Origin: Christensenella sp. UBA6880 | GTDB taxonomy: Bacteria; Bacillota; Clostridia; Christensenellales; CAG-917 | Direction of reading: 5' to 3' | DNA length: 64,000 nt | Assembly: GCA_002449145.1 (NCBI GenBank) | Contig: DKCG01000024.1 | Coordinates: 14,266-78,265, forward strand | In this document: piece after piece, positions 4,834-30,656 of the stretch | Position numbering within the stretch: the first letter of the stretch is position 1 | Layout: every line of letters begins with the position of its first letter | Notes under the pieces: generated by a model | Seen by the model: only the letters and a program-made list of their open reading frames with translations | Databases searched by the model: none | What the model was told of the DNA's origin: nothing | Translations under genes and position numbers: made by a program

Positions 4834-4868
4834 CGGAATTTCGGAATTTTTTGAAAAAAAACATTTCG

Positions 4869-5170: not shown

Positions 5171-5443
5171 ATGGCGAGCAAATCTATTTGCATAAGAACC
5201 GATGAAGAAGTAAAAAAAGATGCCGAAGTGCTTTTTGACAGTATGGGTATGTCGTTGTCGACGGCGGTCAACGTCTTTTTGAAACAGGCTATTCGCGTCA
5301 ACGGTATGCCTTTTGAATTGAAAGGATATACCCCCAACGACACCACGAGAGCGGCAATAAAAGAAAGCGACGAAAAAGTCCTTTCGGGCAAAAGCAAAGG
5401 TTATGACGATATTGATAGTCTTAGGTCTGCTTTGGAACTATGA
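5171..5443 (+). CDS. Type II antitoxin, RelB/DinJ family
   Basis: 90 aa. ICIRTDEEVKKDAEVLFDSMGMSLSTAVNVFLKQAIRVNGMPFEL is a typical DinJ ribbon-helix-helix N-terminus. Strong SD GAAGGAGG. Confidence 0.85.
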   Translation: MASKSICIRTDEEVKKDAEVLFDSMGMSLSTAVNVFLKQAIRVNGMPFELKGYTPNDTTRAAIKESDEKVLSGKSKGYDDIDSLRSALEL

Positions 5444-5715
5444 AGTATATCGTTGACTTTACCACGCAGTTCAAAAAGGATATAAAACTTGCAAAAAAGC
5501 AAGGCAAAGACACAGAAAAGATATTTGAAGTGGTCGAAAAACTTGCAAACGACGAAGTTTTGGAAGCAAAATACAAGGACCATAGTTTGACAGGGGATTA
5601 TAAAGATTGCAGAGAATGTCATATCGAGCCGGATTGGCTTTTGATATACAAAAAGTATGAGTCCGAACTGATATTGATGCTTGTCAGAACGGGCAGTCAT
5701 TCGGATTTGTTTTAA
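5440..5715 (+). CDS. yafQ: Type II toxin, YafQ/RelE-family mRNA interferase
   Basis: 91 aa. FKKDIKLAKKQGKD, YKDHSLTGDYKDCRECHIEPDWLLIY and RTGSHSDLF are present. ATGA overlap with the antitoxin stop. Confidence 0.85.
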   Translation: MKYIVDFTTQFKKDIKLAKKQGKDTEKIFEVVEKLANDEVLEAKYKDHSLTGDYKDCRECHIEPDWLLIYKKYESELILMLVRTGSHSDLF

Positions 5716-5775: not shown

Positions 5776-5816
5776 GTTGAAAATTTTTTGAAAAAATTTG
5801 CAAATCGTCCAATAAA

Positions 5817-5860
5817 ACGATTGCTTGGATTGTATATATAATATAAAATATATAAAATAG
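5817..5860 (+). promoter_or_regulatory. Promoter-like module A (TTGCTT-17-TAAAAT) upstream of the four-helix-bundle gene and giant ORF
   Basis: aataaaacgaTTGCTTggattgtatatataatataaaatatataaaa. It closely resembles module B at 27564-27612. Confidence 0.45.
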
Positions 5861-5885
5861 TGCGTGTATGCGCAAGGCAATGATG

Positions 5886-5965
5886 CAATGATATCGCCAA
5901 AGGCGATGATATCACTTCGTGATGATATCGCGCCAAACGGCACGATGATATCCAAACGGTGTTTG
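5886..5965. repeat. Left array of (A/G)ATGATATC boxes separated by mini-hairpins
   Basis: Boxes end at 5895, 5913, 5929 and 5952. Hairpins are cgcc-aaa-ggcg, atcac-ttc-gtgat, cgcgcc-aaac-ggcacg and ccaaac-ggt-gtttgg. Confidence 0.75.
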
Positions 5966-5999
5966 GGTTGCGGAATATCTGAAATGATAGGAGAGGCAA

Positions 6000-6356
6000 G
6001 TGAAAGGTAATATTTTGGTTGAAAAGTCAAAACAGTTTGCCAAAGAGATTGTCTTTACGGCAAAAGAGATACAACAAACTCATAAGGAGTATGCTCTTAC
6101 AGACCAATTGATGAGGTCGGGCACCAGTATCGGTGCAAATATACACGAAGCAAACTATGCACAAGGCAGAGCGGATTTTATATCAAAGCTTGAAATAGCA
6201 TTGAAAGAATGTTATGAAAGCGACTACTGGCTTGAATTGATGACCGAAACAGGTTATTTGGACGAAGCAAAATACAAAAAACTCAACCACGACTGCGGTG
6301 AATTGCGAAAACTGTTGATAACGTCTTGCACGACGGCAAAAGCGAATAAAGTGTAA
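6000..6356 (+). CDS. Four-helix-bundle protein (23S rRNA intervening-sequence protein / Avd family)
   Basis: 118 aa, GTG start with SD GGAGAGG. RSGTSIGANIHEANYAQGRADFISKLEIALKECYESDYWLEL is the family signature. Confidence 0.8.
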   Translation: MKGNILVEKSKQFAKEIVFTAKEIQQTHKEYALTDQLMRSGTSIGANIHEANYAQGRADFISKLEIALKECYESDYWLELMTETGYLDEAKYKKLNHDCGELRKLLITSCTTAKANKV

Positions 6357-6380
6357 TTATTCCACAATCAGAGTGAAGCG

Positions 6381-6505
6381 AGGATATCATCCGAACGAAG
6401 AGAAGGATATCAACCGAGCAACGGCGAGGATATCATCCACATAGTGGATATCATTGTGCAAAAGGCACAAGAGAAGCCAAAGGCGAACGAAGTGCCAAAG
6501 GCACA
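6381..6505. repeat. Right array of GATATCAT(C/T) boxes (inverted orientation) plus mini-hairpins
   Basis: GATATC occurs at 6383, 6406, 6429 and 6447, and each box is the reverse complement of the left-array box. It is followed by hairpins gtgc-aaaa-ggcac, gcc-aaa-ggc and gtgcc-aaa-ggcac. Confidence 0.75.
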
Positions 6506-6522
6506 TAAATACGGAGAGTAAG

Positions 6523-9500
6523 ATGAGAAGTACAAGGATAGGACAAAACAAACTGAAAAAGTGTATGAAGTTGACTGCGAGCGGATTGCTGCTTGCGGTG
6601 ATGTTTGTCCTCGTCTTTGCCGGCACGCTCTCCGGTGCTTTCGGCATTGAAAATTCCCTTCAACAAAACGGCATAATTGAAAATAACGTTGCAAGTGCGG
6701 ATGCAGCAATTAATTCGAGTACGATAACTCTTTCTAGCTATTTTAATCCAACTGTTACGACGCTTAATATTACCAATAACGTCTCTAATTATTATGCTAG
6801 TCGCGGTAAACTTTACACAACCAGTAATAGCAATTGCGATAATGCGGTTGGAACATGGTCAAATACAAGTTGGTATATGGGTGGTGGTGGCAATCATTCT
6901 GGAACCGACTATGCGCATTGCTGGTTTGATTTTGATTTGGGCGATTTTTATACTCTTAGTGACAGTGCTACAATATCTGTAAAAATTGGGTCGGTGTCGC
7001 GTTCAAATATGGACGGTTTTATTGTTGCTATAAACAGTAGCTCGACGGAATTTGCACAGTATAGCACGAGTAATGGGGAAAAAGCGTATGACAATGATGT
7101 GAAAAAAAATGACAACTGTGATAAGACTTCAGAAAATCCTTCGAATGGTGCGAGCATCACACACACTGTAAAAGGGCGCTATGTGAGAATTTATTTGGTG
7201 ACATATGATTATGCGTTTATTTCTAGTGGATATGGACAATTAAAATTGACCAATGTTAGCATAATTCTCACGCGTACGCTTAAAACATATTCTGTCACTT
7301 ACGACAAAAACGCAAGCGATTCAACGGGAACAGTGAGTAATACAAGTCACAAATTTATGGCCGCTTCCAACATCTCGTCGAATTTCTATGTCGGAAACAG
7401 ACAGTATTTCACCGAGTGGAACACAAGTGCAGACGGCAACGGCATTCATATGGGAATCGGGGCTAGTACGGGAACTTCCGTTGCTGCAAACACTTTCGGA
7501 AACGTCGTAAAGGCAAATCTTGCAGCGGGAAATACAACAACCACGCTGTACGCTCAATACACGGGAATTTCATTTGTTTTCAATCGACAGAATTATTCGA
7601 TTTACAATAATGAAGTGTTGCAAGTGTTGCAAGGAAAGAGCGGATATTTGACATCTACTGTCGATTCGTCCTATACAACAACCATAACGTACAAAGATTC
7701 AAGCAATTCGACAATTTCGGAGCCGACTTCAATAGGTGTTTATTCTGCGACAATCACGGTTACGAAAGACGGAAAAACAAGAGGTTCCGTCACGTTGCCT
7801 TTTGAGATTATCGAAGGCGATTTCGGAAAACTTGACGGCGCAAGCGGAAAATGGGGAAGTTTGTCCAACCCATACGTCATAAAAAACGCTACGCATTTGA
7901 AAAACTTGTCGCGTATTGTCAACAGTGACACACCAGGCACGCAAACGGCACTCAACAGTATTGTCGGAAGTGATGGCGGCGCGGTTACGGCAGACAAAGT
8001 CGTTGCAGTGGATAATAAATTTGCAAACTGCTATTTTGTCATTTCTGCAGATATAGGATCGGCAAGCGCGCCTGTGTCGCTTACGCCAATCGGTAACAAT
8101 GCAAGTAACTATTTTGCAGGTACAATTTACGGTGGAAGTCTTAATAATGTAAATGCTCGTAATTTGAGGACAATATATTTGAATATCCAACAGAGCGGCG
8201 TGAATAACGTTGGATTGTTCGGATATGCAAGCGGTGCGAACATATCTTACATAAAGATAGCCGGTTCGATTTTCGGTGGCGCTTACACCGGCGGTGTTGT
8301 CGGATATGCTGACGGCGTGGCGATTTCACACGTTGTGAACGAGGCGTTTGTCAGAGGTACAAGTGTAGCTTCAAATAGCGAAATATCGGCAAGCGGTGTG
8401 TTTGTCGGCGGTATTGCAGGTTTTACGCACGGAAGTGCGCCGGTTTCTTATTGTTATAATTCCGGTTACGTTTCGGCTTTGACGGAAAGCGGCAATTATT
8501 TGTCCAATTCTAATTTCGTTGGCGGTATCGTCGGATATGCACGAACAGAGGTTTCATATTGCGCAAATATTTACGATTCTTCTATCACATTTGATTCGTC
8601 CGAAGCAAGAAGCGCACGAATCGAAGGCAACGATTATTTGGGCGGTATTGTAGGAAATTCGTCAAGCACGATTAAGTATTGCTACGATGTGCAAGGGCAG
8701 CGCAAATATCGCTACAACACGGGTCGTATCGGCGCAATCACCGGCTCTGGCGGTACGGTTGAAAATTCGTGGGTAGTAAACGAGTCGACTGCGGAAACAA
8801 CGGCTTCAAATCCGAACGCCGTTGTCAGTACGTTAGGAAAAAAACTTGTGACAAGTTTCGCAGTTACCCCGATTGTCATAAACAGCGGTGAAACGGAAGT
8901 GACTTGGACGGACATTTTGAGCCAAAATATCAATGGCTTCAAGATTTCTACGAGCGTTGCAAGCGGCTATTATCTCAAACTTTCGAACAACAACGGCAAC
9001 GGCGTGCTTCCGTATAAGGTCGGCAACGGTTATACGGCGCAAAACAGCACGAGTTCAACCGCAATTACGCAAGGCAATATAAGTTGTGATGTATATTATA
9101 ATGCTACAACTTCAAATGATATATATGTGCAAGTCGAAGCGATAAACCCAAACACGGATAGCAAAACATACAATGCAAACGCACAGCAAATCGGAAGCTT
9201 TGCATTGCCGACAGGCTATGAAACACTCGCAACGTTCTATTTCGACCGCGACGACAACGGCAATCCAACAGGCACGCCGTTATTAAGCAAAACAAATGCA
9301 GGCACATACGCCGTTATTTCAGATGTGAAAATTAAAGTCGGCAATGTAACATACGTTGTCGGTCGGAAACAGGCGAATTGGACAATCACGCCTTTGTATT
9401 TGCGTGTGTCGAATGCAACTTTCAATTACGGTGTAAACGTTGAGAAACAACTGCAAAACAACATCGTTATATCTGCAACAAGCGGTGGTACAGCATTGAC

Positions 9501-12500
9501 AAGTCATCCGTTCAGCGTTGTTATAGATTCGAGCGCTTACAATTTTTATAAATCTATAACTTCAGGTCAAAACACGTTTGCGATTACAAGTGATAAGATT
9601 ACCGTTAAAAGCGGTGATAATATTGTCACTGGAAACTTTGTCATATCGGGCTTCGAAGTCGTCATAAAAGAAAGCGATTTCGGCGTTGAAAACAGTGGAA
9701 TTAACGGAAACAATATCGATAACAACAAATGGGGCAGTCGGAACAATCCGTACATAATTCGCACGTTCATACAACTTGACAAATTGTCGAGCATTGTGCG
9801 CAACGGCGGTGCAGTCAACAGTATAAAAACAGGACTATATGAGTATGTCACCGCAACTGACAAAACGTACGCAGGCGCATATTTCAAACTCGCCGTTTCA
9901 TTGTCGGCAGGTAATATTACGCCTATCGGCACGAATACGGCGGTATTTTCGGGATTCTTCGACGGCAACAATAAAACGTTGAGCGGAATCAACATCAACA
10001 AGGCGGGCAGTTACGTCGGCCTTTTCGGCTATACGAGCGGCGCAACCATTCAAAACCTCACGATTTCGGGGGCGGTGAAAGGCTCGAAGTACGTCGGTGG
10101 CGTTGTGGGTTACGCGCTCAACACGACGATTTACAACGTAACCAACAACGCAACCGTAACCGCAAGATATTCGGTGGATAAAGATTTGTCAACGAGTATC
10201 AGACAATACGACGGCGGCAACCAAACGAACGAGGGTTTCGATAAGGTGTTTGACGGAAAGACGAGTACGAAGTTCTGCGGCACGCAATCGGGTATGAGTT
10301 TCGTTGCGGATTTGAGAAGCAGGTTGGCGATTTCGGGCTTTGCAATCACAAACGCAAACGACACGGAAAGCAATTCAAACAGACGCCCGAAAAAGATTCA
10401 AATTTGGGGTTCTAACACTGAAAATAATTGGCCGTCCGATAGCCCTAACGATAAGGGAAACGCGGGCGCGTGGCCTGCGCTCTACAATTATAAAAACTGG
10501 AATCTCGTATTTTCCCTCGATACGAGCAATTTCTCTTCAAGGAACTATGAGAGAGTCGAGTTCGCTTTTGACGGAAACAAAACTTACAAATACAGATACT
10601 ACTGGGTTTATATCATAAGCGCGGGCGGCAGTATTCAGTTTTCCGAGTTCGATTTCTTGGCAGCAGGCGAGGACGTAGGCGGCGTTGTCGGCTACGCTTC
10701 GGGTACGAGCGGAAACGGCACGGTCATTTCAAACGTCAAAAACAACGCAAGCGTTACGGGCAGTAACTATACGGGCGGTCTCGTCGGCAGAGCAAGCGGC
10801 AATTTTGCAATCATCGATTCGTCAAACGCGGGCGGCATTATGGGCTTCGACGGCGTTGCGGGCGTGCTCGGCGCAATGACGAACAATGCTAACGTCACGA
10901 TTACGAGTTGCCACAACAGCGGAACGGTGTCGAGCAGTCCCGAATCCAACGGCGTTGCGGGTATCATCGGTCATACGGAATCGGCTTCAAACAGATTGGT
11001 CGTTCAAGGCTGTAAAAACAATGCTGCCATAACGGGCGACAGAAACGTCGGCGGCATAGGCGGACGTATCGAAACCACGAGAAACGCAAAAGACTCGTTG
11101 GTTTTTGCAAACTGCTACAACGACGGCAGTATCGCCGCAACAACGTACGGCACGGTGGGCGGCATTGCCGGTTATTTCTTTGCCAACGGAACGTCGATAG
11201 CGGACGTTGCGACGATTTCGTATTGCTTCAGTTCGGGCGCGGTTTCGTCCAACAGCACCGCTTCCGACAAGAATATCGGCGGTATCGTCGGCAATCCGAG
11301 GGCAAGCACGTTGACTTCCACGCGCGTGTATAACTGCTATACGACCAACACGACTTATGCGATTTCGGGCACGGCAAACGCAACTATCGACAACACCAAC
11401 TACGTCATTGCAAGCGGCGCATCCGCACCGTCCACGACGAACGGCGGTAAATACTTGGTGTATAACTCTGCGCTCACTTTCAAACCCGCAATTATCGAAG
11501 ATGGTTCGGAAACGCCGTTCGATAGTTGGACTGTGATTGCGGAATACGTTAACGCAACCGTAAACGGCGAAGTCGTCAGATTGTTCAACGACATCAACGG
11601 ATTTATGGTGTCGGGCGACGTCGCGCCGAGTTCGAGTCAATACTTCCTTTCAAGAAAAGGCGTGTCGAGTTCGGAATATCTCACGCCGAGCAAGGTTGAA
11701 AACGGCAATCCCACGAACGCCGCAGACAGAAGCAATACCGCGACGTTTACCGTTACCGCGTGGTACGGCGCAAACGCAAATAGCAATATTCAGTGCACGA
11801 TAAGCACAGTCACGATAAACGATTCAAAAAACAATATTTACAACGGTCAACAGCAAGGCTTTGCAAGAAGCGCGGTGAGCAATCCGAACACCAACAATAG
11901 CGTATACGGCGTCGTGTTCGACTACTTGCTTACTTCGCCGTCCGAGCATTTCGTCAAGACGTTTGCATTCGATTCCAACGGCAACCTTACCGAAAGCGGA
12001 AGCAATCCGTATCAAGTGGGCGCGTATAATACGACCGTATTCGTAAAAATCGGCGACGTTATCGTCGGTAAGAGAGTAAACAGAGTTTTTGAAATCGCGC
12101 AAGAAACGATTAACGTCGCGTGGGAATGGACGGACGGCAAACAATCGACTCTGTTCAGCCGTATCGGCACGGGCGACGGCATTCAGTTCGTATACAACAA
12201 AGCGGAACAAGGTTTGGGTTCGGTGACGTTCGCTTACAATCAAAACTTGTTCTATACGGCGGCGGAATATATGTTTACCTCAAGCGGTAATTTGAAGTAT
12301 ACGAACGCAAGCAGCAACGCGTATTCCCGTACGTACACGCTGAACGACACGAGAAACTTTAAGATTCATTCGACGAATACCAACGCGGATTTGTCGGGTA
12401 CGACGGTTACGTTCGAGTGGATTATCCGCAGAAACAAACTCACAATCGAAAATAGGTGGGTGAGAGAGGACTTCGGAAAAGACTCGACGATTTATACCTT

Positions 12501-24500: not shown

Positions 24501-27387
24501 CTACGAAATCGTCGACGGTATAACGAGCGGCGAGTTCGAGATAACGCCGTCCGTCGTGTCCGTAAGCTTTACGGCTACGAACGCAACGCTCGAAAAGGTA
24601 TACGACGGCAACAACAGGGTGACGGCGCAAATTCTCGACAGTTACTTCAAGTTGGAAGCAACTGGACACGTTCCCACGAAATTCCCATTCACGATCGGCG
24701 GAACGTACGACGACGAAAACGTGCTTTACGATTCGAGCAACAACGTCATAAGAGGCAAAGCGGTCACGTTCTCGTATACGTTCGCCGACCCGACGAACGT
24801 AGGCGACTACGCTTTGGGAAGCGTCGATACGGCGGCGTACAACGTGGGCAAGATTACGCCGAAACATATTCAAGTTTTCCTTGACAAACTGCGCTCTAAC
24901 AAGGCGACGAGGACGTACACCGACGGCACGACCTACGGCGGCAGCGGCGTAAGCGGCAACGGCACGACTAAACCTTATCGAGCGGGCGAAGGCTTCAGAG
25001 TAAGCGGCGTTTTGACGGGCGACGTAGTGACCGTCTTCGCAAATTATTCGGAATCCGAAAACTTGCGCAACACTTCTACTAACGGCGGTTTCGACTTTGC
25101 AAAATACGTCAACGACGTGTACAAAGACTCGGACGGCACGTTCAAGAAAGCAACTTCGGGCACATATCTCAAGAAACTCGTGTTCGAGATGAACGGCGCG
25201 GACGCAGGCAACTATACGTTCAACGTATATCATTCGAGCGACGGCGCATACAGCGATACGGACGGCAACTTTGCGACTAAAGTCACCGTGTACGACAGCA
25301 GAGAAAGCGACCAAAACCGCAAGAATAAGAGCGGTTCGCCGCAAATCCAAATCGAAATAACCGTAAAATCCGTCAAAGTGGAATACTCGAACACCGCTCA
25401 AAGTTACGCCAACGACGACAACACCTACAACACCGACTGGGCGCGCGTTACGGGTACGAACAAGGAAACGGACAAGGCGGGCGCGGACATCATCGTCACG
25501 AACGGCTGGATGTACGACGACGGCAAAGACCGCCCGATAGATTCCACCGACAAAAAGAGAGAATACCACGGCTACACGGTCATTCAGGGTAGGTCGGGCA
25601 ATTCCCGACTCGGTGCGTCCGTGTCCACGACCAACGGTATGAATCTCAACTATCGTTTGAGCAATCAGCCGACTCTCACCATTGCGTACTTCGTGTCCAC
25701 AGAGAGCAACGAATACAAGATAACTTCGCTTGCGCGTTTGCTCATCGCGTCCTTCTACTATACGGCGCATCAGAATCCGCAAAACCTCGATATGATCAAG
25801 ATCGTATCGTCGGGTTACGCGTGGGTTAAGGTCGTCAGCGTGGGTGAGGACGGCGCATACGTCGGCGACTACAAGAAGCCCGACAATTCGCCTATCAAGG
25901 ATTCTACGGCAACCACTTGGGACGAGTATCTTGCCCAATTGCAAGCGGCGGATTACGCGGTGTTCTTCGACACCGAAAAGAACGAATGGGGCTACTATAG
26001 TTCCAACGAATCCACGCAAAACGACATTCCGTTGAAGTTCGTGCAAACGAAAGACATAACGGGTACGTTCACGGCGCAAGACATCGAAATACTCAACGCG
26101 TTCTTCACGACCTCGTCCGTAGACGACAACGGCGTCGTTACGCAAAAGCAGTATAACTGGAACGGAAACAACAAGGACTTCCTCACGAACGTACTCAAAG
26201 CGAGAGTGGGCGCAAACGTGACGATAGACGGCAGTCTGTTCGTATCGACGGTGACGTCGAAAGTGAACGGAAGCGACGTTTTGACGGGCTTTGACGGCAC
26301 TTACGACGGAAACGGCTACGTCATCGAATATCTCAATATAATGGGTTATGGCAAGACGAACGTCGGCTTGTTCGACGTGATCGGCGAAAGCGGCATCGTA
26401 AAGAACGTGCATTTGAGAAACGTCACTATCAACGCAAATCGAGGCAACGTAGGCGCAATCGCGGGTAGCGTTTACGAATCGAAAACAACCGAAACGAGCG
26501 TAAAGAACGTGTCCGTACACGGCGCAATCAACGTGAGCGGCGGCACGGTGGGCGGATTGTTCGGCACGAGCGCGAGAGATATTGAAAACGCAATCGTTCT
26601 CGGCACGATAACCTCTCAAAACGCAAACGTCGGCGGCGTTGTCGGCACGACGAGCGCAAGCGTAAAGAACGTCGTTTCCCTCGTGCAAATCACCGCATAC
26701 GGCGGCACGGCAAAAGCGTTTACGACGTCGGGCGCAACGATTGAAGATTCCTATCATATGACGAACGCCGTATGGCAAAAGAGAAGCGGATTCGACAATG
26801 TTTCTGGCAAGTCAAAGACGTTCAACGAGTTGATGTCGGGTTCGATTTCGGGTTACGGCACGCAAAACAAGTATTACTACACGGGCGATACCGCACCGAA
26901 CAAAGGCGAATTCGACGTACTCGACGACGTGCATATTACCGAACTGTCGGCAATAGGTGAGCCGAGCGAAGAAAATCCAAGACAGAGTATGCGCCTCAAA
27001 GATATAGTTTCCGTATATCTAATGATGTATTCTTTGTCAAAGACGACGGGAATGCTCACGAGCGACGGCAAGAGTTTCGGCGTGAACGTATACTCGCTCA
27101 GTTCGTCGAGTTGGCTCGTAGGCACGGCGGACGGCACGCAAAGCAATCCGATTGCAATCGCAAACAAGCAAAACGTATCGCTTTTAAGACAACTTCCGTT
27201 TGCGACGTTCACGCTCAAAACCAATATCGCGCTCGACGTTGCAAGCACGTTTGCAGGCGCGTTCTTCGGAACGGTTACGAGCGAGACGGATAGCACGGGC
27301 AATTCGCTCGGATACAAGATAACTTGCGACAAGGATATGTTCGAGGCGTACGCCGAGAGCAATCCGAGTTGGATAGAAGTCGCATAA
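6523..27387 (+). CDS. Giant secreted repeat protein (~6,954 aa): GLUG-like beta-helix modules, MBG/YDG-type Ig-like runs, CBM/discoidin-like domains; putative adhesin
   Basis: The frame stays open for 20,865 nt. GGAG lies 6 nt before ATG 6523. The N-terminus is signal-like (MRSTRIGQNKLKKCMKLTASGLLLAVMFVLVFAGTLSGAFG). There are dozens of GG[IVL][VI]G turns, repeated NPY[VI]I..L..LS.IVN module starts, and KIYDGTPVTPV / KVYDGNNRVTAQ units. Confidence 0.9.
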   Translation: MRSTRIGQNKLKKCMKLTASGLLLAVMFVLVFAGTLSGAFGIENSLQQNGIIENNVASADAAINSSTITLSSYFNPTVTTLNITNNVSNYYASRGKLYTTSNSNCDNAVGTWSNTSWYMGGGGNHSGTDYAHCWFDFDLGDFYTLSDSATISVKIGSVSRSNMDGFIVAINSSSTEFAQYSTSNGEKAYDNDVKKNDNCDKTSENPSNGASITHTVKGRYVRIYLVTYDYAFISSGYGQLKLTNVSIILTRTLKTYSVTYDKNASDSTGTVSNTSHKFMAASNISSNFYVGNRQYFTEWNTSADGNGIHMGIGASTGTSVAANTFGNVVKANLAAGNTTTTLYAQYTGISFVFNRQNYSIYNNEVLQVLQGKSGYLTSTVDSSYTTTITYKDSSNSTISEPTSIGVYSATITVTKDGKTRGSVTLPFEIIEGDFGKLDGASGKWGSLSNPYVIKNATHLKNLSRIVNSDTPGTQTALNSIVGSDGGAVTADKVVAVDNKFANCYFVISADIGSASAPVSLTPIGNNASNYFAGTIYGGSLNNVNARNLRTIYLNIQQSGVNNVGLFGYASGANISYIKIAGSIFGGAYTGGVVGYADGVAISHVVNEAFVRGTSVASNSEISASGVFVGGIAGFTHGSAPVSYCYNSGYVSALTESGNYLSNSNFVGGIVGYARTEVSYCANIYDSSITFDSSEARSARIEGNDYLGGIVGNSSSTIKYCYDVQGQRKYRYNTGRIGAITGSGGTVENSWVVNESTAETTASNPNAVVSTLGKKLVTSFAVTPIVINSGETEVTWTDILSQNINGFKISTSVASGYYLKLSNNNGNGVLPYKVGNGYTAQNSTSSTAITQGNISCDVYYNATTSNDIYVQVEAINPNTDSKTYNANAQQIGSFALPTGYETLATFYFDRDDNGNPTGTPLLSKTNAGTYAVISDVKIKVGNVTYVVGRKQANWTITPLYLRVSNATFNYGVNVEKQLQNNIVISATSGGTALTSHPFSVVIDSSAYNFYKSITSGQNTFAITSDKITVKSGDNIVTGNFVISGFEVVIKESDFGVENSGINGNNIDNNKWGSRNNPYIIRTFIQLDKLSSIVRNGGAVNSIKTGLYEYVTATDKTYAGAYFKLAVSLSAGNITPIGTNTAVFSGFFDGNNKTLSGININKAGSYVGLFGYTSGATIQNLTISGAVKGSKYVGGVVGYALNTTIYNVTNNATVTARYSVDKDLSTSIRQYDGGNQTNEGFDKVFDGKTSTKFCGTQSGMSFVADLRSRLAISGFAITNANDTESNSNRRPKKIQIWGSNTENNWPSDSPNDKGNAGAWPALYNYKNWNLVFSLDTSNFSSRNYERVEFAFDGNKTYKYRYYWVYIISAGGSIQFSEFDFLAAGEDVGGVVGYASGTSGNGTVISNVKNNASVTGSNYTGGLVGRASGNFAIIDSSNAGGIMGFDGVAGVLGAMTNNANVTITSCHNSGTVSSSPESNGVAGIIGHTESASNRLVVQGCKNNAAITGDRNVGGIGGRIETTRNAKDSLVFANCYNDGSIAATTYGTVGGIAGYFFANGTSIADVATISYCFSSGAVSSNSTASDKNIGGIVGNPRASTLTSTRVYNCYTTNTTYAISGTANATIDNTNYVIASGASAPSTTNGGKYLVYNSALTFKPAIIEDGSETPFDSWTVIAEYVNATVNGEVVRLFNDINGFMVSGDVAPSSSQYFLSRKGVSSSEYLTPSKVENGNPTNAADRSNTATFTVTAWYGANANSNIQCTISTVTINDSKNNIYNGQQQGFARSAVSNPNTNNSVYGVVFDYLLTSPSEHFVKTFAFDSNGNLTESGSNPYQVGAYNTTVFVKIGDVIVGKRVNRVFEIAQETINVAWEWTDGKQSTLFSRIGTGDGIQFVYNKAEQGLGSVTFAYNQNLFYTAAEYMFTSSGNLKYTNASSNAYSRTYTLNDTRNFKIHSTNTNADLSGTTVTFEWIIRRNKLTIENRWVREDFGKDSTIYTFEYNAAHQGLLATDGITYIVENDTAGKSHEIYSWVLYTDNHANTINVGRYSRSIYLNDQTNYVIAYTNSYVGNSTAKLSSSKGVSVNDTQSSVMYSWQILAYNILDNFNSDSSKTKVWFGANTDVIVGNQLTSVISGATRDGNSVSVDYYPLQYAQSGVQQVLVYGQNTTEVQHYLPKNFIVYVQYNDGTIARLVSGNEYTLSDLKAPTAANPAPINTSVTASGQGNFAGDLSKYYTVLYSDFGWKSGKNPNSANWGTADNPYVIDRPEYLLRLSQIVNGKDKAWNSIANTAYCYAPQSTATAQNATYKGAHFLVTANIDMSDYVSTDGLTNFLPVGDGSANGERLFSATFDGGNNEIKYIYNIGYFVNKANPSGEEKYDYVGLFGYIDGATVKNLTVTSERSISFTVGDVTYKGGVNGRDYVGGIVGKAVDSTLEEVVLRYGDCVYGNDYVGGVVGFAKNTTIANSGKIFNASVSGRFYVGGIAGEWQVYDKSQLGLNNQQSLTPIDSSSVSGAKYVGGLVGWLDLSNCSGSVTFTPQYDNGTSKTLEVKGTEYVGALFGTLVGNGYRQTANSTGLTSIVIESSKVGNVTLKPVPYTDGNSTYLPKVVGGLVGFIESAALVFGTSWNTSNIKFEFDKTSTSFLGGVVGVMSKNSTIEMFVLTKNDGSQLTAVDGKITANTQFGHVGSPSSSNYNAGSFVGGIVGYVSSQAGSFWREGTTVFGNAVQFENTANIYATGFVGGIFGALGNIALSKIEQSIGAVYDEISVAQNQDNRTNILQKILVGGVREGLSGSTLGIAPTTDSDYVSGANGKLRNIASVQVTKSNGIGGEYVGGIVGYSGANVRLVLRNKPQTGDIDVSALNVYSGGANVAIAGSYAGGIAGFIDNLEHELQYIVVQAKFTDSNATRVGGLIGEMMSGAIDGCVVVSAMAVGESISFDTDNFQGKEYVGGLVGRTENASIRNSLATGFNLQSTSITKGGVLGGGTNPTIEASWTFYIAREGATYSTISANEYGKYILVDKDTITSNGSSYPYFEKLCAFAGIANTATEGAVGVLEFALNVPTQRQLAFYDASGSDSVTTNGGESGDFESINGVLTIKLDMETGTSMQVCLIPIEFVNVPKHYANDDERISIVEGRYKKPSDSSRYIVQVQDAHFDVGVTNQVDRIQALVYFDWNNDGHATLVGESGTASEKTGDYNASFQPGDDPASPLTISNQKEWNDFAYSIYSGANDYAGKYVKLLTDDIVIDNSAHYGTASGTVPLNFSTTCTPNNNSDDSKNATSNLGYNFAGNISQGSSKVEKIYFGTSKNLSAKTPSFKGHFDGNGHTIEIRYTSGGHHRISVFPNASNATFQNLTIKGSIKAGTNKDNSGYDIAAFVGKPFGAITFENCTAAVDIQGLRVIAGFAGCSTKNAPITFIGCVNKGDIHSFEWSTWTRGGTQTLGNQYDYAYGTGGFVAYASSNINFESCLNTGDITGGSKIGGLVGRVTNENKNKTILTINNCANMGRIYSEEYNPYNADNETNKSGNVWSKAGGLVGEVDYYTEMSMYASYNTGEVRAIGNVAGGLVGIIGTIPGGDSDNKAGYTETQYYSTIAYCYNTGEVKVGNVEWGGITMYVPDQIGGSGVNFNGSNAGGIIGTTGGVKVSYCYNAGKITGLGGVGYITTWQARNGGIIGELTSHNNSNVGSVKNIGYAYVRNCYNVGVIELKESKKSATRYSADIIGYIQGNAGDHSEIKNCYGVANNIINYTDGKGNPAYYSGVNKAGGGDNTSYVAGITLNSRSDLTAIMQSDGTVKPKAYSGTNEQTLWNPSIKTIGAQDSTAYKNGTLGGYVYVYGCLPQLAVFAVDTYNGLSMNSQNFGKDETYGEDGTYTAQAAGERLSPYVIRDGIDLLGVQTLVGLGYSFKGEYIEFANGKNNITLDQNLSSDIAKEIKLPTKVSQTAKVNVADGAYKAKSDLGEENYTHTGKSYHLFAQSAVCSGDNNAGVNAAYVNWLSENYYYNGDNGKYANNATYSVQNMFPIGKSNRPFRGSLSGKQKDGSNTIISNLHISAHANSGDTYAGLFGRTEDAYIGFVEIGGASKVCAYSSGGNQIASSGAVVGYATGSTEVEHCAVNGTTSIGAYGKNKGEIVAADKTVFAGGIVGIADPKRSASYSAGAMAIIRNCNVSTTGNIESAKDYIGGILGYVDGLSNAEGKGNSVRIENCNVQNAVIQAADSATTSSYIGGVLGFGSQYVSAFVTGCSVGVGGKVAIKGEHSLGGIAGGMSNAQGGYIDSCTVGGGTSITRIDQGGDKQVAESANHGTAIGGLVGFTQNSADTVSPLTTTFSGTSSFGGTITVGIAATNQSQDSDAAISCIGGIVGDMGSGANFASGSVVTVGGTISIPLAAANVGGVAGRTNTATFIGKFDVSPNMSTSHTENVGGFIGKNIGTVYILADNTDKLVNGLKGTQISIGGTIVGTSEVGGFIGVNNAQSTLNIGSNVANAKPYKSGTLNITISAKVIGSGENVGENVGGIVGKNEGASSLGATDYATIDIVKGVILQKGDIEGQKYVGGIIGLNQGLLTTGGGEADTAIGGATLSTEQINSIKNLSITNEGNVKGGALNGTTYENGDYVGGVIGLLDSPSALQATDEGKGAIAGTFTNKGTVEGGRFVGGSIGLVGKNVTITAKDTDTLFVNSGEVTAHGYFAGGSIGALVGTIEGVSTDYMINFENEGNVNATGFVGGSIGVLAGPVKFAQFVNKSNGLTVNAVNSVGGSVGYIGLPSMLKTVLDTLGITISSDYVQIVNTHFEAKGNLTVNANQTAIDEAKGNASDSSTGWGGVGGAIGVIGANVAKWGSDDKERNTYYANGNVEASGINNVGGIVGLVNADNVTISNMLAHGTTVKGGANVGGIVGATTGAGTVIKSAYAVEGTFEGSETVGGIIGLSESDTDAKSSYWVKGYPNATLAGTDVGKLQTDLGKFETIVEYVDSQPVVFTEEFCTMYTPKTYYDDYTGTHKYDGKTITAVTDANMTWEQYFASSLGISNAEEKNGAWVKPIAGAKSYTTGASDTGWYFVYATDTTIGTITDTTIGTISAEHSVNANESYWKRIADAYTASEREAGDDTKELEKSAIVLGDNGQPQKSTLYATATSAGENSGYYLYMATSGNSRPSATYSGDKFFIKTLTVNNNTVTDGNTTADDEEKLAGNVAVYYRTISRGKTLTYNGYDRFAPVGITASEGDEVPFIKEPSTDTTKADSYCYSSDMSADSIKAEPGTFKSKVKIYYFDSEGTPHVVGGVEIDWEIKKRDLEASLSVPSGTLTYGDPDIDAVLTIENIAPIDGNNLGIAGNIRFEIVIKDEDGKEIAKFTWNGTEFVGQSADGKVVSNNITVSNGGFGIGSNLSGDDLLFNVEDIDSLDLATRTFSCSINFKDAKTYKISVVTPNMDDKYNPSPIVEDQTITVNPATLTLRRTSAPSHDFDNTYANKGATWTVSGFKFNDGEAQFAAFEPEFVMALGKINETKTVTKTAMQKDGALINPVKIDSLIQVNLRVNEEQTGKILSFDLTGVSKVGDYYIKIAGGKGYRVGNYTLTFEGTSEPTYSINENKITISGTTNGTHQYDGSTKGTITVTFTADKNIVNLGQFVEQFFAASINNGVTVKTKPSASSSSKAVTWVFETGVNANKYTVTLKKGDGYEEAAKSCSHMPSALPTYSYEITKRPLTVEFAQTGSSPYEYNTYHQGLSTVKISNLCQIGSVWDHVDITLYVGDNQYVVSSNRNNAVDVKNLVSTINVGTYAATISASLGGKSSGNYYISNYDESTSWTIKKHKLTLSGLKQDDGKIYDGTPVTPVLKVNGSDISNGEITYGADTIKIKYSATVDGATTDTIVNAGTYKIGIGGNATDAIIAMRGSENTTQNYEIDGTDEAEYTIQPRQIKLTWKNAPSFVFSNAAQGLIVTGVEGIDGNGSLAIVNGSSTIDGVNIKGYAGNDVIEITISGAATHVADGKKFMTAVISKVTGTNADGSDSILKNYEIVDGITSGEFEITPSVVSVSFTATNATLEKVYDGNNRVTAQILDSYFKLEATGHVPTKFPFTIGGTYDDENVLYDSSNNVIRGKAVTFSYTFADPTNVGDYALGSVDTAAYNVGKITPKHIQVFLDKLRSNKATRTYTDGTTYGGSGVSGNGTTKPYRAGEGFRVSGVLTGDVVTVFANYSESENLRNTSTNGGFDFAKYVNDVYKDSDGTFKKATSGTYLKKLVFEMNGADAGNYTFNVYHSSDGAYSDTDGNFATKVTVYDSRESDQNRKNKSGSPQIQIEITVKSVKVEYSNTAQSYANDDNTYNTDWARVTGTNKETDKAGADIIVTNGWMYDDGKDRPIDSTDKKREYHGYTVIQGRSGNSRLGASVSTTNGMNLNYRLSNQPTLTIAYFVSTESNEYKITSLARLLIASFYYTAHQNPQNLDMIKIVSSGYAWVKVVSVGEDGAYVGDYKKPDNSPIKDSTATTWDEYLAQLQAADYAVFFDTEKNEWGYYSSNESTQNDIPLKFVQTKDITGTFTAQDIEILNAFFTTSSVDDNGVVTQKQYNWNGNNKDFLTNVLKARVGANVTIDGSLFVSTVTSKVNGSDVLTGFDGTYDGNGYVIEYLNIMGYGKTNVGLFDVIGESGIVKNVHLRNVTINANRGNVGAIAGSVYESKTTETSVKNVSVHGAINVSGGTVGGLFGTSARDIENAIVLGTITSQNANVGGVVGTTSASVKNVVSLVQITAYGGTAKAFTTSGATIEDSYHMTNAVWQKRSGFDNVSGKSKTFNELMSGSISGYGTQNKYYYTGDTAPNKGEFDVLDDVHITELSAIGEPSEENPRQSMRLKDIVSVYLMMYSLSKTTGMLTSDGKSFGVNVYSLSSSSWLVGTADGTQSNPIAIANKQNVSLLRQLPFATFTLKTNIALDVASTFAGAFFGTVTSETDSTGNSLGYKITCDKDMFEAYAESNPSWIEVA
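7282..7563 (+). other. Listeria-Bacteroides (Flg_new)-type repeat inside the giant ORF
   Basis: KTYSVTYDKNASDSTGTV...YFTEWNTSADGNG...TTLYAQYT. Confidence 0.45.
10159..10668 (+). other. Discoidin/F5-8 type C-like (CBM32-like) domain inserted in a beta-helix module of the giant ORF
   Basis: DGGNQTNEGFDKVFDGKTSTKFCG...ISGFAITNANDTESNSNRRPKKIQIWGSN...YRYYWVYIIS...IQFSEFDF. Confidence 0.5.
16500..17950 (+). other. AT-rich, differently codon-biased island inside the giant ORF
   Basis: Hand-counted 60-nt lines give 35-40% GC here against 58-60% in the flanks. Gly is encoded GGT/GGA here and GGC elsewhere. Confidence 0.55.
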
Positions 27388-27563
27388 TCGCAACATAAAT
27401 CGCAATCGGGCGGCAAAAAAAGCCGTCCGTGAGCGAGAAAAACGTGCGAAAAAACAACTCGCTCGAAAATCCAAAGAATTGCGAAAATATCGCAAAATCG
27501 TGATTCTAACCGCACGTTTTCAAAAAGTTGAAATATCGTGCAAAAAAATCGACGAAAAATCAA

Positions 27564-27612
27564 ATAAAACGCCTTGCTCGATTGTAGTTTATATATAAAT
27601 ATATAAAAAATC
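27564..27612 (+). promoter_or_regulatory. Promoter-like module B upstream of the three-gene operon
   Basis: ataaaacgccTTGCTCgattgtagtttatatataaatatataaaaaa. It shares aataaaacg / ttgct / gattgta / tatatataa / atatataaaa with module A. Confidence 0.45.
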
Positions 27613-27646
27613 CGCAAGGTACGAACAAAAGAAACAAGGATAAACT

Positions 27647-28735
27647 ATGCAAGCAAGCAAAAGCAAAAACTTCAAAATCGTAATGTCAGTTATGATTCCG
27701 CTTTTGATAATCGTGACCACCGTCGTTATGGTGGGCGCGTCCTTTGCGTGGTTTACCAACGCCGACAAGGTCACCGTTGCTGAAATAACGATGTCTACGG
27801 CGGATTCTTACAGAATCGACTTTACACGCCAACCTTTGTCCACTGACGGCAAGTTGTTGTTTGACAATATGCAGTACGTCGGACAGACCGCATTTTGCGC
27901 AAGCGGCGCAAACGCGGGCAAACTTATGACCGAAGCCATCGCGGCGGGCAACGCCGTCGACACGAGCGACCGTGCGTATTACTTCATCAACACGGTTGCG
28001 CTCGACACGCAAGGCAAGACGTTCGATATGAGTATGGCGTTCGACGGCGTGAAGATAGTGAAGTACAAGCGCAACGCCGACGGCTCGATTGCCAAAGATG
28101 AAAACGAGCAAAACGTCGTTGAAAAAATCAACAAAATCTACGCCGCTACGGGTTCTAACGTATCGCCCGTGAGTGACATTCCGTTTGCGTTCACGTGGTT
28201 TTTCAAGGCGCACGGCGAAACCGATAACGACGGCGTAGTGAGAAACTACGAAACGTACAAAATCGACGATTCAACCAACGCTCAGCGACTTTTGCAACTC
28301 GAACCGCAAAAGAACGAAGTTTGGTACACGCCCTACGGCAAACTCACCTTCGGCGACGACAATCTCGTTGCGCGCGTAAACGACGACGATTCAATCGACT
28401 CTGCGAGTATAAAGGGCGTTGACAAGCGAATTATCAACGACTTCGGCACGAACGGCATAGGCAACGCCACGTCGCAATTATTCGATTTCTACATCGTTTT
28501 CGCACCCGAAAAACTGTTCTGGATGCAGTTTTTCTCGGCAGACAGGGACAAATACACCGCAACCGATATCTACACAACCACGGTGGACGGCGAAACGACA
28601 AACGACGACACTAAAAAGATTTTTGAGGAATTGTCCAATCAGATGTACTATTCGCATATGGATTATTCGGGTTCTACGTTTGAATTTTCGGCGGTACTCA
28701 ACGTAACGAACGTACACGAGGAGGCGCAAGGATAA
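27647..28735 (+). CDS. Secreted protein with TasA/camelysin-like (SipW-type) signal peptide, putative
   Basis: 362 aa. The N-terminus KNFKIVMSVMIPLLIIVTTVVMVGASFAWFTNADKVTVAEITMST resembles the GGT-x-A-x-F-[ST]-D class. The C-terminal ..YSGSTFEFSAVLNVTN resembles the last strands of TasA-like proteins. Confidence 0.75.
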   Translation: MQASKSKNFKIVMSVMIPLLIIVTTVVMVGASFAWFTNADKVTVAEITMSTADSYRIDFTRQPLSTDGKLLFDNMQYVGQTAFCASGANAGKLMTEAIAAGNAVDTSDRAYYFINTVALDTQGKTFDMSMAFDGVKIVKYKRNADGSIAKDENEQNVVEKINKIYAATGSNVSPVSDIPFAFTWFFKAHGETDNDGVVRNYETYKIDDSTNAQRLLQLEPQKNEVWYTPYGKLTFGDDNLVARVNDDDSIDSASIKGVDKRIINDFGTNGIGNATSQLFDFYIVFAPEKLFWMQFFSADRDKYTATDIYTTTVDGETTNDDTKKIFEELSNQMYYSHMDYSGSTFEFSAVLNVTNVHEEAQG

Positions 28736-29532
28736 TGAACAAGACCAAACGCACTCTAATCGTATCTTCCGTCGTTATGGCTCTCATATTCGTCGTCACT
28801 ATAGTCAGCGTGACCGCCGCGTGGTTTACGAACGTCGCGGACAGCAACGAGGACGGATTCACAACCGATTCCGCGCTTTTGCAAGAGAGCGCAAGCATAT
28901 CCATCGACGAGAACGCCGCAAGCGATTACGGCACTTCGATTTGGCCTGCCGTGGCTACGCCCGGGTACCTTTCAAAAGGCAACGTCGCCCCGTACGGCAC
29001 CGATTTGAAGCAGAAGCAGACGAGCAAAATCGACATTGCGGCAAAATGCGCCGTGTTGTATTTTCCAATAACGTTTGTCGGCTCGTCGGACGCGGGGTAT
29101 AAAGACGGAAGAAAATCGCTTATGCTCAGCGCACTTTCGGCGCACCTCGACAATGACGAAGAAAACAAAGATTATCTTTCCGATTTCAACGTCGAAATGG
29201 AACTCGTCACCTTGAAAGAGGAGTCCAAAACCAGCGAAACCATAACGCCGACTGCGCCGAGCGATTTTTCGGGCAATCCGAGCGCAATATACTACAACCA
29301 ACCGTTCAAAGACGTCGAACGTAAATTGCCGAGTTGCAAACTCTATATGCTTGTAATCCCCGGCGAAACCTACTATGTCAAAGCAACCGTTTATTTCAAC
29401 CGAATCGACGAGGAATGCAACGAGAAACTCATATACCTCGCCAACACGCAAAAGAATATAACGTTCCAGTTCGAAATCAAGGACAACGTTGCGCAAGGCG
29501 TGAATATCAGAGAAGGAAATATGCCCGTATGA
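28735..29532 (+). CDS. Secreted protein with TasA/camelysin-like (SipW-type) signal peptide, putative (paralogue-like)
   Basis: 265 aa. N-terminus: LIVSSVVMALIFVVTIVSVTAAWFTNVADSNEDGFT. Also LVIPGETYYVKATVYF and ANTQKNITFQFEIK. The start overlaps the upstream stop (TAATG). SD GAGGAGG. Confidence 0.75.
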   Translation: MNKTKRTLIVSSVVMALIFVVTIVSVTAAWFTNVADSNEDGFTTDSALLQESASISIDENAASDYGTSIWPAVATPGYLSKGNVAPYGTDLKQKQTSKIDIAAKCAVLYFPITFVGSSDAGYKDGRKSLMLSALSAHLDNDEENKDYLSDFNVEMELVTLKEESKTSETITPTAPSDFSGNPSAIYYNQPFKDVERKLPSCKLYMLVIPGETYYVKATVYFNRIDEECNEKLIYLANTQKNITFQFEIKDNVAQGVNIREGNMPV

Positions 29533-30212
29533 CATCACTTCGCAAAAACAAAATAGCGATGATAGTCGCAATAATAGTGCTTTTTGCAGTCGCAGTTTCG
29601 GCGACGGGCGTTTCCTATGCGGTTTGGATTTCCCCGGACGGTCCGATAGGCGGCGGCTCGTCCAAAGCGTCCCCGTCCGTTACGCCCGACTCGAACAACG
29701 TCTGGGCAAAGTATTTCAATTATAAGGAAATAACCGTCGAGGGGTTGGATGGCAAATACGTCGAAATATCCACGTTCTACACCGACGGCGAAAACGCACA
29801 AGGACTCAATTTGTCCGACTTGTATATCCCCGAGGTCATTTGGGTGGAAAAGGGCAGCGGAAAAGTGCTTGCAACGCTTGACGGCGTAAGCGAAAACGCG
29901 TACGAAACCTACAACGTTTACCGCATCACCAACAGCATTTTTGCGGATTCGTCCCTCAAAAGTTTGCCCGTAACGATTCATATCCCTGCAAGCGTATGCG
30001 AAATCGACGCCGCCGCTTTTGCAGGTCTGCCCAATCTTAAAGCCGTGTATTTTGAAAACAGAATGCCGTGTACGTTAGGTGCGTATGCGTTTGCAGGTTG
30101 CTCGAGTCTCGAATACGTCTACAACGTCAGAAACGGCGGCGTAACGCCCGACGACACCTCTTTCGTCGGCACACAAATCAACGTCATCGACGGTCAAATT
30201 AGGTTTGCGTAA
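29529..30212 (+). CDS. N-terminally anchored/secreted protein with BspA-type leucine-rich repeats
   Basis: 227 aa from ATG 29529 (ATGA overlap with the upstream stop). N-terminus: KIAMIVAIIVLFAVAVSATGVSYAVWISPDG. C-terminal LRR_5-like IPASVCEIDAAAFAGLPNLKAVYF..LGAYAFAGCSSLEYVY. Confidence 0.7.
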   Translation: MTSLRKNKIAMIVAIIVLFAVAVSATGVSYAVWISPDGPIGGGSSKASPSVTPDSNNVWAKYFNYKEITVEGLDGKYVEISTFYTDGENAQGLNLSDLYIPEVIWVEKGSGKVLATLDGVSENAYETYNVYRITNSIFADSSLKSLPVTIHIPASVCEIDAAAFAGLPNLKAVYFENRMPCTLGAYAFAGCSSLEYVYNVRNGGVTPDDTSFVGTQINVIDGQIRFA

Positions 30213-30262: not shown

Positions 30263-30291
30263 TTGACACAATCGCAAACTCTTGCTATACT
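30263..30291 (+). promoter_or_regulatory. Near-consensus SigA promoter of the tRNA operon
   Basis: TTGACA (30263-30268), 17-nt spacer ending TGC (extended -10), TATACT (30286-30291). Confidence 0.7.
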
Positions 30292-30298
30292 AAATAGG

Positions 30299-30560
30299 CT
30301 TGATAGCGAAACGATTTGCTTGAAGTGATACGAAAGCGTATAAACGTAGGCATACGAGCGTGTCTTGCTTGATAGCGAAGCGTCAAACCGTTTGGATAGA
30401 AAACGGTTTCAAAAATAAAAGAAACGATTTGCTTTGATTTTATATGGAAGCGTATCGAAGCGGTCATAGCAGGCGTGTCTTGCTTGATAGCGAAGCGTCA
30501 AACCGTTTGGATAGAAAACGGTTTCAAAAATAAAAGAAACGATTTGCTTTGATTTTATAT
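30299..30560 (+). repeat. 115-bp tandem repeat (2 identical units plus 1 degenerate unit) forming the tRNA-Ser leader
   Basis: 30358-30468 and 30473-30583 are identical over 111 nt. 30299-30357 is a degenerate copy lacking the aaaccgttt/aaacggttt hairpin. Confidence 0.9.
30446..30510 (+). pseudogene. Truncated tRNA-Ser pseudogene (5' two-thirds, with 17-nt insertion in the anticodon loop)
   Basis: ggaagcgtatcgaagcggtcata equals nt 1-23 of the genuine tRNA. gcaggcgtgtcttg resembles its anticodon stem, and aaaccgtttgg is shared. There is no T-arm. An older, degenerate copy lies at about 30331-30395. Confidence 0.55.
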
Positions 30561-30649
30561 GGAAGCGTATCGAAGCGGTCATAACGAGGCGGTCTTGAAA
30601 ACCGTTTGGGTGAAAGCCCACGGGGGTTCGAATCCCTCCGCTTCCGCCA
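30561..30649 (+). tRNA. tRNA-Ser (anticodon TGA)
   Basis: 89 nt. Acceptor GGAAGCG/CGCTTCC, anticodon loop CTTGAAA, long variable arm tgggtgaaagcccacg, GGTTCGAATCC T-loop and an encoded CCA. Confidence 0.85.
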
Positions 30650-30656
30650 AAAATAT

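Follow-up and report, generated by a model that had tools for sequence, protein, structure and literature searches.

The 64,000-nt stretch of DNA analyzed here (the window; contig DKCG01000024.1 of Christensenella sp. UBA6880) carries a four-gene surface module of uncultured gut Clostridia that is conserved, inherited as a unit, and evolving fast. It consists of the gene for a giant exoprotein of 6,954 aa (6523-27387, plus strand; the ATG start is at 6523, not 6524) and, downstream on the same strand, a trio of small genes that we call P1 (27647-28735, 362 aa), P2 (28735-29532, 265 aa), and P3 (29529-30212, 227 aa). An earlier reading of this DNA, referred to here as the original prediction, had placed everything between 5.8 and 30.2 kb on one strand and had described the trio as joined by start/stop overlaps. 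Both claims were borne out by the map of open reading frames (ORFs) and by direct reading: all real genes in this region lie on the plus strand, the minus-strand ORFs being mere shadows within the giant ORF, and an exact sequence check gave the P1/P2 overlap TAATG at 28733-28737 and the P2/P3 overlap ATGA at 29529-29532. The order along the plus strand is a promoter-like module, an inserted intervening sequence (IVS) cassette, the giant ORF, a second copy of the promoter-like module, P1, P2, and P3. Pfam scans of the large ORFs showed that the window also encodes SpoIVA, RNase J, and EngA, indicating that the host is a spore-forming Firmicute.

A genome scan found P1 in 35 species-level genomes, all of them uncultured gut Clostridia or Christensenella-like metagenome-assembled genomes (MAGs) from human, mouse, and rabbit. 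The order giant-P1-P2-P3 was kept in 34 of the 34 loci with enough flanking sequence, down to 29% P1 identity, with colinear giant homologues upstream of P1 in all related loci. A remote P2 relative in locus L042 (E=6e-10 to the P2 profile) keeps the same order, and its third gene again encodes the leucine-rich repeat (LRR) domain LRR_5. A trio without a giant gene was not seen in any of 39 loci. The co-occurrence of giant gene and trio in relatives, a check that the original prediction had proposed, was thus confirmed. Sequence identity within the four-gene cassette is 37-58%, as compared to 81-92% for the flanking GDPD and GH3 genes. In locus L016, for example, GH3 and GDPD are 92% and 86% identical to their counterparts in the window, whereas P1 is 56% and the giant C-terminus 48% identical; in L025, GH3 is 86% and P1 only 37% identical. 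Rates of divergence match between the giant protein and the trio, and in close relatives, such as L005, there are unalignable blocks within the giant gene. Loci L012 and L040, which are on the same contig (CAVBBF010000008.1), are mosaic, with identities of 89% for the giant N-terminus, 78% for its C-terminus, 58-61% for the trio, and 93% for GDPD; this mosaic divergence suggests recombinational replacement of the trio between lineages. From the overall pattern of divergence we infer that the products are exposed surface structures under diversifying selection and recombination. As the cassette is the locally fastest-evolving part of the genome, it is likely to be a determinant of interaction with host, phage, or immunity.

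The promoter-like module that the original prediction had described as duplicated proved to be real. Its core, AATAAAA-N9-13-ATTGTA, occurs exactly twice in the 64 kb, at 5811-5834 and 27563-27586, versus 0.01 matches expected. Copy 1 (5799-5869, plus strand) reads AAATCGTCC-AATAAAA-N11-ATTGTA followed by TATATAATATAAAATATATAAAAT, which is AT-rich, and by a short GC hairpin whose loop is GCAA, and it precedes the IVS and giant genes; copy 2 (27551-27620, plus strand), which aligns with copy 1, lies after the giant stop codon and before P1. The module recurs once per locus, 60-100 nt upstream of P1, in 25 related loci. It is also found upstream of the giant gene in L040 and L041, and in two relatives with sequence before both genes it precedes both. 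In an alignment of 27 module copies, C-n-AATAAAA and ATTGTA are invariant and are followed by the AT-rich tract and then usually by a small GC hairpin. The most distant clades lack the module, and their giant gene and P1 are separated by only about 20-50 nt, an arrangement which suggests that the four genes were probably a single operon ancestrally. A scan with the sigma-70 consensus called no promoter at either copy, and fits made by eye on the 27-sequence alignment to sigma-70, extended -10, SigD, SigE/K, sigma-54, and extracytoplasmic function (ECF) sigma factor consensus sequences were inconsistent across clades. Rfam gave no RNA family in the locus. We regard the module as a conserved cis-element, plausibly with a promoter or operator role.

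The giant protein is 40% G/S/T/N, has a single hydrophobic segment, at aa 13-37, and carries an N-terminal signal-like segment, ..FAGTLSGA/FGIEN.. (here and below, a slash marks the end of the signal-like segment). It had been predicted to lack a recognizable wall or membrane anchor, and Pfam searches and a motif scan agreed, revealing no C-terminal transmembrane or other hydrophobic segment, no LP.TG (LPXTG) sequence anywhere, and no SLH or other wall-binding domain. The only Pfam match is a weak one to Glug (PF07581), 22.2 bits versus a cut-off of 20.5. The protein contains 45 hGGhhG motifs, where 0.5 would be expected, and these form arrays with a spacing of about 30-45 aa; the GLUG repeats are also visible as DNA repeat families in the gene. 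A BLAST self-comparison detected no strong internal repeats, just the short GLUG motifs, and neither half of the protein had a PDB sequence match. A conserved C-terminal docking tail was sought and not seen, the identity being uniform at 0.25-0.48. At the other end of the protein, aa 23-59 are about 78% identical to L041 (judged by eye on the alignment) as compared to 44% over the first 200 aa, and form a conserved block, ..FVLV.AGTLSGAFG.E..L.QNG.IE.NVASA. In locus L044 (3357-4355; GCA_003522765.1), a strain-level copy, the gene call for the giant protein begins some 830 nt later and a 62-aa ORF occupies the interval; a frameshift, a misassembly, or a further insertion close to the N-terminus of the giant protein could explain this late start.

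P1 begins with a signal or transmembrane segment ending ..VGASFA/WFTN.., followed by a conserved segment (aa 37-61) that the structure model leaves unplaced and by a β-sandwich body. Searches found 154 database homologues, all of them lacking Pfam domains and informative names; a 100%-identical database copy, from the MAG of an uncultured 'Clostridiales bacterium', is annotated only as a hypothetical protein. The N-terminus, ..IPLLI.VVT.VMVGASFAWF[TS][ND].., is the most conserved part of the family, with SFAWF invariant, and the body contains many invariant polar and aromatic residues, including those of YTPYG, FDFYIVFAPE, and NQMYYS. An AlphaFold2 (AF2) monomer of P1, with a mean predicted local distance difference test (pLDDT) score of 73.8 and a predicted template modelling (pTM) score of 0.76, is a β-sandwich with residues 1-61 disordered. 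P2 likewise has a near-invariant N-terminus, MNKTKRTLIVSS..VTAA/WF[ST]N, and a predicted β-sandwich body (AF2 pLDDT 76.8, pTM 0.74), with residues 4-24 modelled as one helix and residues 25-47 disordered. Its homologues numbered 261, or 293 when a distant orthologue was used as the query, again with no Pfam domain or informative name among them; a P2 profile run against 1.84 billion representative proteins collected only 57 clusters, all about the length of P2 or shorter and none linking to a large family, and in the remotest members the N-terminal motif persists as G[VI]TAAWFGD. Neither P1 nor P2 had a PDB sequence match. By these sequence searches, P1 and P2 are orphan families. The N-terminal motifs that had been quoted for them in the original prediction are present and are the most conserved parts of both proteins. 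At positions N33 (where N or D occurs), E51, and K81/K92 the P2 alignments show little or no variation, and the order of these residues resembles the N-E-K isopeptide triad of BsaA (10.1101/2024.11.04.621531), a likeness seen purely by eye.

After a signal or transmembrane segment ending ..GVSYA/VW[IT]S.., P3 has a G/S/T/P-rich linker, a conserved VWAKYF motif, and the BspA-type LRR domain that had been predicted, which matched LRR_5 (PF13306) with 30.2 bits versus a cut-off of 27.7 (E=4.7e-7) and the BspA-like LRR structures PDB 4fs7 and 4gt6 at about 1e-7. Of the hmmsearch checks that had been suggested, those for LRR_5 in P3 and GLUG in the giant protein therefore both gave scores above the cut-offs. 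The P3 orthologues in L001 and L042 contain LRR_5 as well, and the N-termini of P3 orthologues conform to G-[VF]-[ST]-[YA]-A-[VI]-W-T-[SDE].

The signal ends of the four proteins, SFA/WF in P1, TAA/WF in P2, SYA/VW in P3, and SGA/FG in the giant protein, are alike: in each, [ST]-x-A is followed by an aromatic/hydrophobic pair, is unusually conserved, and leads into a conserved stretch of about 20 residues. When the P1 and P2 families were compared by hhalign, similarity was confined to the first 65 or so aa (E=2e-4). The shared signal end satisfies the -3/-1 rule of signal peptidase I, and it places an aromatic residue at cleavage-site position P2', as in TasA (GTWA/AF), and in proteins P1 and P3 also at position P2. 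Aromatic residues at P2' and P2 reportedly account for the poor cleavage of TasA by LepB and for its dependence on SipW (PMC10269814). A type IV pilin or prepilin reading was rejected, there being no G/FTLIE-type motif and no Glu at +5 in 60 aligned N-termini.

We read P1, P2, and P3 as an accessory module, either TasA/TapA-like or anchored in the membrane, which would assemble or retain the giant protein. Our working model, which we hold tentatively and would rate somewhat below an even chance, is the TasA/TapA-like form. The signals would be cleaved at [ST]-x-A as in TasA, so that the mature proteins would start at W35 (P1), W30 (P2), and V32 (P3), and the cleaving peptidase would be encoded elsewhere in the genome, being either of the SipW type or, as in the archaeal Abp system, the general one. 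Once released, the N-terminal segments would act as donor strands, and P1 and P2, as jelly-roll-like β-sandwiches, would form a short heteropolymer or stalk like those of TasA/TapA, BsaA/BsaB, and AbpA/AbpB. The giant protein, which has a conserved N-terminal segment too, would join through it and be the adhesin at the tip or the initiator, P3 with its LRR domain would serve as adaptor or base, and the outcome would be an anchorless giant adhesin displayed or retained at the cell surface. This last element, a fibre that presents or holds the giant protein, is purely conjectural. The model draws on the kept gene order, the fast and partly mosaic divergence of the cassette, the cis-module duplicated before both transcription units, and the N-terminal module common to the four proteins, besides the comparisons with TasA that follow.

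The original prediction had likened the N-termini of P1 and P2, by eye, to SipW-cognate signals, with a weaker match to the same class in the giant protein. The corresponding model, TIGR04088, has a cut-off of 19 bits, and a TasA control sequence scored 38 bits with it (and 513.8 bits with NF046066). Among P1-family N-termini, 17 of 20 matched TIGR04088 at E≤1 (best 5.6e-4), and the model aligns P1 residues 20-51 to its positions 3-33 such that the TasA cleavage point falls at A34/W35. Homologue P0099 reached 17 bits. We regard P1 as a borderline candidate for the SipW-cognate signal class; the likeness is thus partly supported for the P1 family and unsupported for P2, P3, and the giant protein. 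In Foldseek searches of 350,542 PDB chains with the AF2 models, the first match for P2 was the archaeal pilin AbpA (7ueg_A; E=0.01, probability 0.33, TMt 0.25); for P1 the TasA fibre 8aur_A came at rank 32 (E=0.88, TMt 0.27), below generic jelly-roll capsids, and adds little. For the structural part of the prediction, the place of AbpA at the top for P2 is a hint that falls short of significance. The conserved segments that follow the motif (P1 37-61, P2 25-47) were left unplaced in the AF2 monomers, as expected of a strand that needs a partner, and this behaviour is compatible with a donor strand although not diagnostic of one. Together these sequence and model comparisons lend weak support to a kinship of the trio with TasA fibres.

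A number of results weigh against this kinship and the model built on it. The P1 of the window itself scored below the TIGR04088 cut-off (13.5 bits, E=0.063), and the model found none of 20 P2 sequences and none of 10 remote P2 members, one of 20 P3 sequences (E=0.5), and no match in the giant protein. Neither P1 nor P2 matched PF12389 (Peptidase_M73/TasA, for which a search had been suggested), TIGR04089, TIGR04090 (BsaA), or NF046066 at E≤1 in Pfam and NCBIfam; hhalign of the P1 and P2 family profiles with B. subtilis TasA gave a probability of <1%; and profile searches of the PDB with P1 and P2 returned no TasA or AbpA sequence. No Foldseek match for either protein was below E=1e-3, the best being E=0.01 with a TM-score of about 0.25. 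In Bacillus and C. perfringens, sipW sits in the operon. Here, phmmer with B. subtilis SipW and a scan for the motif [GSAT][SG]SM.P, applied to all ORFs of at least 80 aa in the window and within ±10 kb of 39 loci, found no SipW-like or other signal peptidase I ORF, and Pfam scans of the large window ORFs found no signal peptidase either, in keeping with the earlier statement that the window has no sipW. Finally, the physical link between the giant protein and the trio is a putative one.

The strongest alternative, which we judge somewhat unlikely, is that P1, P2, and P3 are not cleaved at all, and are type II (N-in) single-pass membrane proteins forming a heterotrimeric complex that docks or retains the giant protein, or helps to export or fold it, at the membrane-wall interface. 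The transmembrane helices would pack together, the LRR domain and the two β-sandwich ectodomains would make up a receptor, and AWF/VWT would be an interfacial aromatic belt. The hydrophobic helices and the cytoplasmic n-region (MNKTKRTLI) are nearly invariant, a pattern that cleaved signals do not usually show and that suits an anchor kept in the membrane; no other parts of P1 and P2 are as conserved, P18, L20, T25, and M28 being invariant in P1 and K3-L8 in P2, and the hydrophobic stretches are V/I-rich and about 16-25 residues long, that of P2 being modelled as the single helix of residues 4-24. In P3 the flexible G/S/T/P linker directly follows the hydrophobic segment and separates it from the LRR domain, as in type II anchored proteins, and, together with the near invariance of the transmembrane segments and n-regions, it favours retained anchors. 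The same explanation would account for the lack of a dedicated peptidase nearby and for the failure of TIGR04088 with P2 and P3, and translational coupling of the trio would suit an equimolar complex. In contrast, the conservation of small residues at -1 and -3 ([ST]-x-A) in P1, P2, P3, and the giant protein is a signature of signal peptidase I, and a combined n-, h-, and c-region of 29-34 aa is normal for cleavable signals of Gram-positive bacteria. The consistent matches of P1 N-termini to the SipW-cognate model, and the fact that the top fold match of P2 is a secreted pilin, also favour cleavage over retention.

We consider it improbable that the trio forms a TasA- or BsaA-like fibre or matrix of its own, which is co-regulated and co-inherited with the giant protein within one surface or biofilm regulon and not attached to it. 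In favour of such a fibre, the trio is preceded by a cis-module of its own, no C-terminal docking tail stands out as conserved in the giant protein, and TasA and BsaA fibres are self-sufficient polymers (PMC7395162). Such independence is difficult to reconcile with the absolute linkage of the four genes over deep divergence, including clades with a giant-P1 gap of about 20-50 nt and no separate module, with the matching divergence rates of the giant protein and the trio, or with the giant N-terminus bearing the same kind of conserved signal-end block. Giant β-solenoid proteins often need helpers, and the invariant polar and aromatic residues in the P1 body would be compatible with a binding or catalytic site; nevertheless, it is also improbable that P1, P2, and P3 act in the maturation, secretion, or folding of the giant protein, whether as extracytoplasmic chaperones or as a processing enzyme, and not as its structural partners, since the trio shows no similarity to enzyme or chaperone families in Pfam, NCBIfam, or the PDB and keeps pace with the giant protein in its evolution, as enzymes and chaperones seldom do.

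The TasA/TapA-like model can be set beside known systems. Like the Bacillus TasA/TapA/SipW operons (tapA-sipW-tasA and sipW-tasA-calY), the locus has tandem genes for small, putatively secreted β-sandwich proteins whose signal ends combine small-x-A with an aromatic residue at P2' (GTWA/AF in TasA; SFA/WF and TAA/WF here) and are followed by a conserved segment, which in TasA is the donor strand and which in P1 lies in the TIGR04088 register; the TasA fibre was also among the weak fold matches of P1. Unlike those operons, it gives no PF12389 or NF046066 match and no significant hhalign result, has no sipW in the operon or within ±10 kb, and includes an LRR member, a P1 (362 aa) far larger than TasA, and a GLUG partner of about 7,000 aa that has no Bacillus counterpart. 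In structure, P2 is best matched by the archaeal bundling pili AbpA/AbpB of Pyrobaculum (7ueg; PMC9245690). AbpA is homologous to TasA, a relationship that only comparisons of profiles or structures reveal; it polymerizes by donor strand, and its operon has no dedicated signal peptidase. AbpB, like TapA, has been proposed as an initiator, one bearing distal adhesin domains (PMC9245690), and this is the role that we propose for the giant protein. The match, at E=0.01, probability 0.33, and TM about 0.25, is slight, and the archaeal system differs in its host and other operon content and has no giant or LRR partner. The C. perfringens sipW-bsaABCRSD operon (PMC7395162; 10.1101/2024.11.04.621531) resembles the locus, as we read it, in its Clostridium host, in encoding several divergent TasA-like paralogues together with a larger accessory surface protein (the vWA protein BsaC), in the disordered N-terminal loop of BsaA/BsaB that has been proposed as a donor strand, and in forming polymers that are membrane-associated and not sortase-anchored. 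It differs in having sipW and a two-component regulator and no giant GLUG protein, and TIGR04090 and TIGR04089 have no match here.

The giant protein also resembles the giant anchorless or GLUG adhesins of Firmicutes in its GLUG arrays and G/S/T/N-rich composition, as P3 resembles BspA-type LRR surface proteins in its LRR_5 domain. To our knowledge, no giant GLUG or anchorless adhesin has been described with a fixed trio of small partners sharing an N-terminal module. The original prediction had held that no system of this kind was described. Our literature searches found no description of an equivalent four-gene module, and to that extent the claim stands; it is qualified by a 2025 preprint reporting divergent TasA/BsaA paralogues, several per operon, beside surface-filament genes in many genomes (10.1101/2024.11.04.621531). 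If TasA-like logic is right, then the clustering of divergent TasA-like paralogues with surface-filament genes is already known and this module is what would be new; if it fails, the trio would be an uncharacterized accessory module for a giant adhesin. An extended form of the model, which we think unlikely as a whole, would make the locus an undescribed branch of donor-strand systems, with a giant GLUG β-solenoid as tip or initiator subunit, two orphan jelly-roll proteins and an LRR protein as stalk and base, a specialized signal/donor-strand module shared by all, and the whole behaving as a hypervariable, recombining antigenic cassette in abundant uncultured Clostridia of the human gut. If TasA-like logic holds, donor-strand fibres would extend from matrix scaffolds to carriers of giant adhesins, and the orphan families P1 and P2 would join a superfamily of extreme sequence divergence. 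The retention of anchorless giant adhesins on Gram-positive cells is poorly understood, and a fixed set of three partner proteins offers a concrete, testable answer. The hosts are uncultured gut Clostridia present in human, mouse, and rabbit metagenomes.

Between copy 1 of the cis-module and the giant gene lies an IVS-like cassette (5870-6510, approximate boundaries, plus strand), inserted in the 5' untranslated region (5'UTR) of the giant gene. It consists of a 5' GATGATATC repeat array (5886-5970), an ORF (6000-6356), and a 3' inverted array (6378-6459). The ORF encodes a four-helix bundle with strong matches to PF05635 (E=2.9e-29, 101.9 bits, cut-off 33.8) and TIGR02436 (E=9e-32, 109.5 bits, cut-off 24). 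The five exact GATGATATC copies of the window all flank this ORF, in inverted orientation, and the flanks pair as a long stem enclosing it (z=-4.0). Of two relatives, L040 (giant N-terminus 89% identical) has the cassette, extended by one repeat unit, and L041 (49% identical) does not, its cis-module being about 65 nt from the giant ATG. An identical IVS protein was found solely in this same context, in 23 contigs. The original prediction was correct about the identity of the cassette and had counted it as a component of the locus; being a 5'UTR insertion absent from L041, it is ruled out as a functional part of the system. An assignment of the ORF to a diversity-generating retroelement (DGR) as an Avd protein was also rejected, since NF033474 gave 20 bits versus a cut-off of 80, the window contains no long repeat resembling a template repeat/variable repeat (TR/VR) pair, and no reverse transcriptase was found among the scanned ORFs. 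The cassette looks like an rRNA intervening sequence that has been moved into the leader of an mRNA, where it might conceivably be excised in the manner of RNase III.

Several features flank the module. Upstream, a RelB/YafQ toxin-antitoxin pair (5171-5712) is inverted in the close relative L040 (2278-2822). Downstream of P3, the region 30263-30762 contains a strong sigma-70-like promoter, TTGACA-17-TATACT, and a 115-nt tandem duplication (30358-30472 and 30473-30587, 97% identical), the second copy of which overlaps the first 27 or so nt of tRNA-Ser(tga); tRNA-Thr(ggt) and a terminator follow. Two identical terminator-like hairpins (GCGCGGTTGAAAGCCGCGC plus a T-run) are located on the minus strand at 30792-30810 and 30949-30967, with a spacing of about 157 nt, in the interval that separates the tRNA genes from the GDPD gene. 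Near the start of the window, two copies of Gut-1 RNA (RF01706), at 1198-1279 and 1456-1535, both scored above the gathering threshold and lie between PHP-domain and P-type ATPase genes, and a 55-nt direct repeat (1373-1427 and 4861-4915, 87% identical) flanks the heavy-metal P-type ATPase gene.

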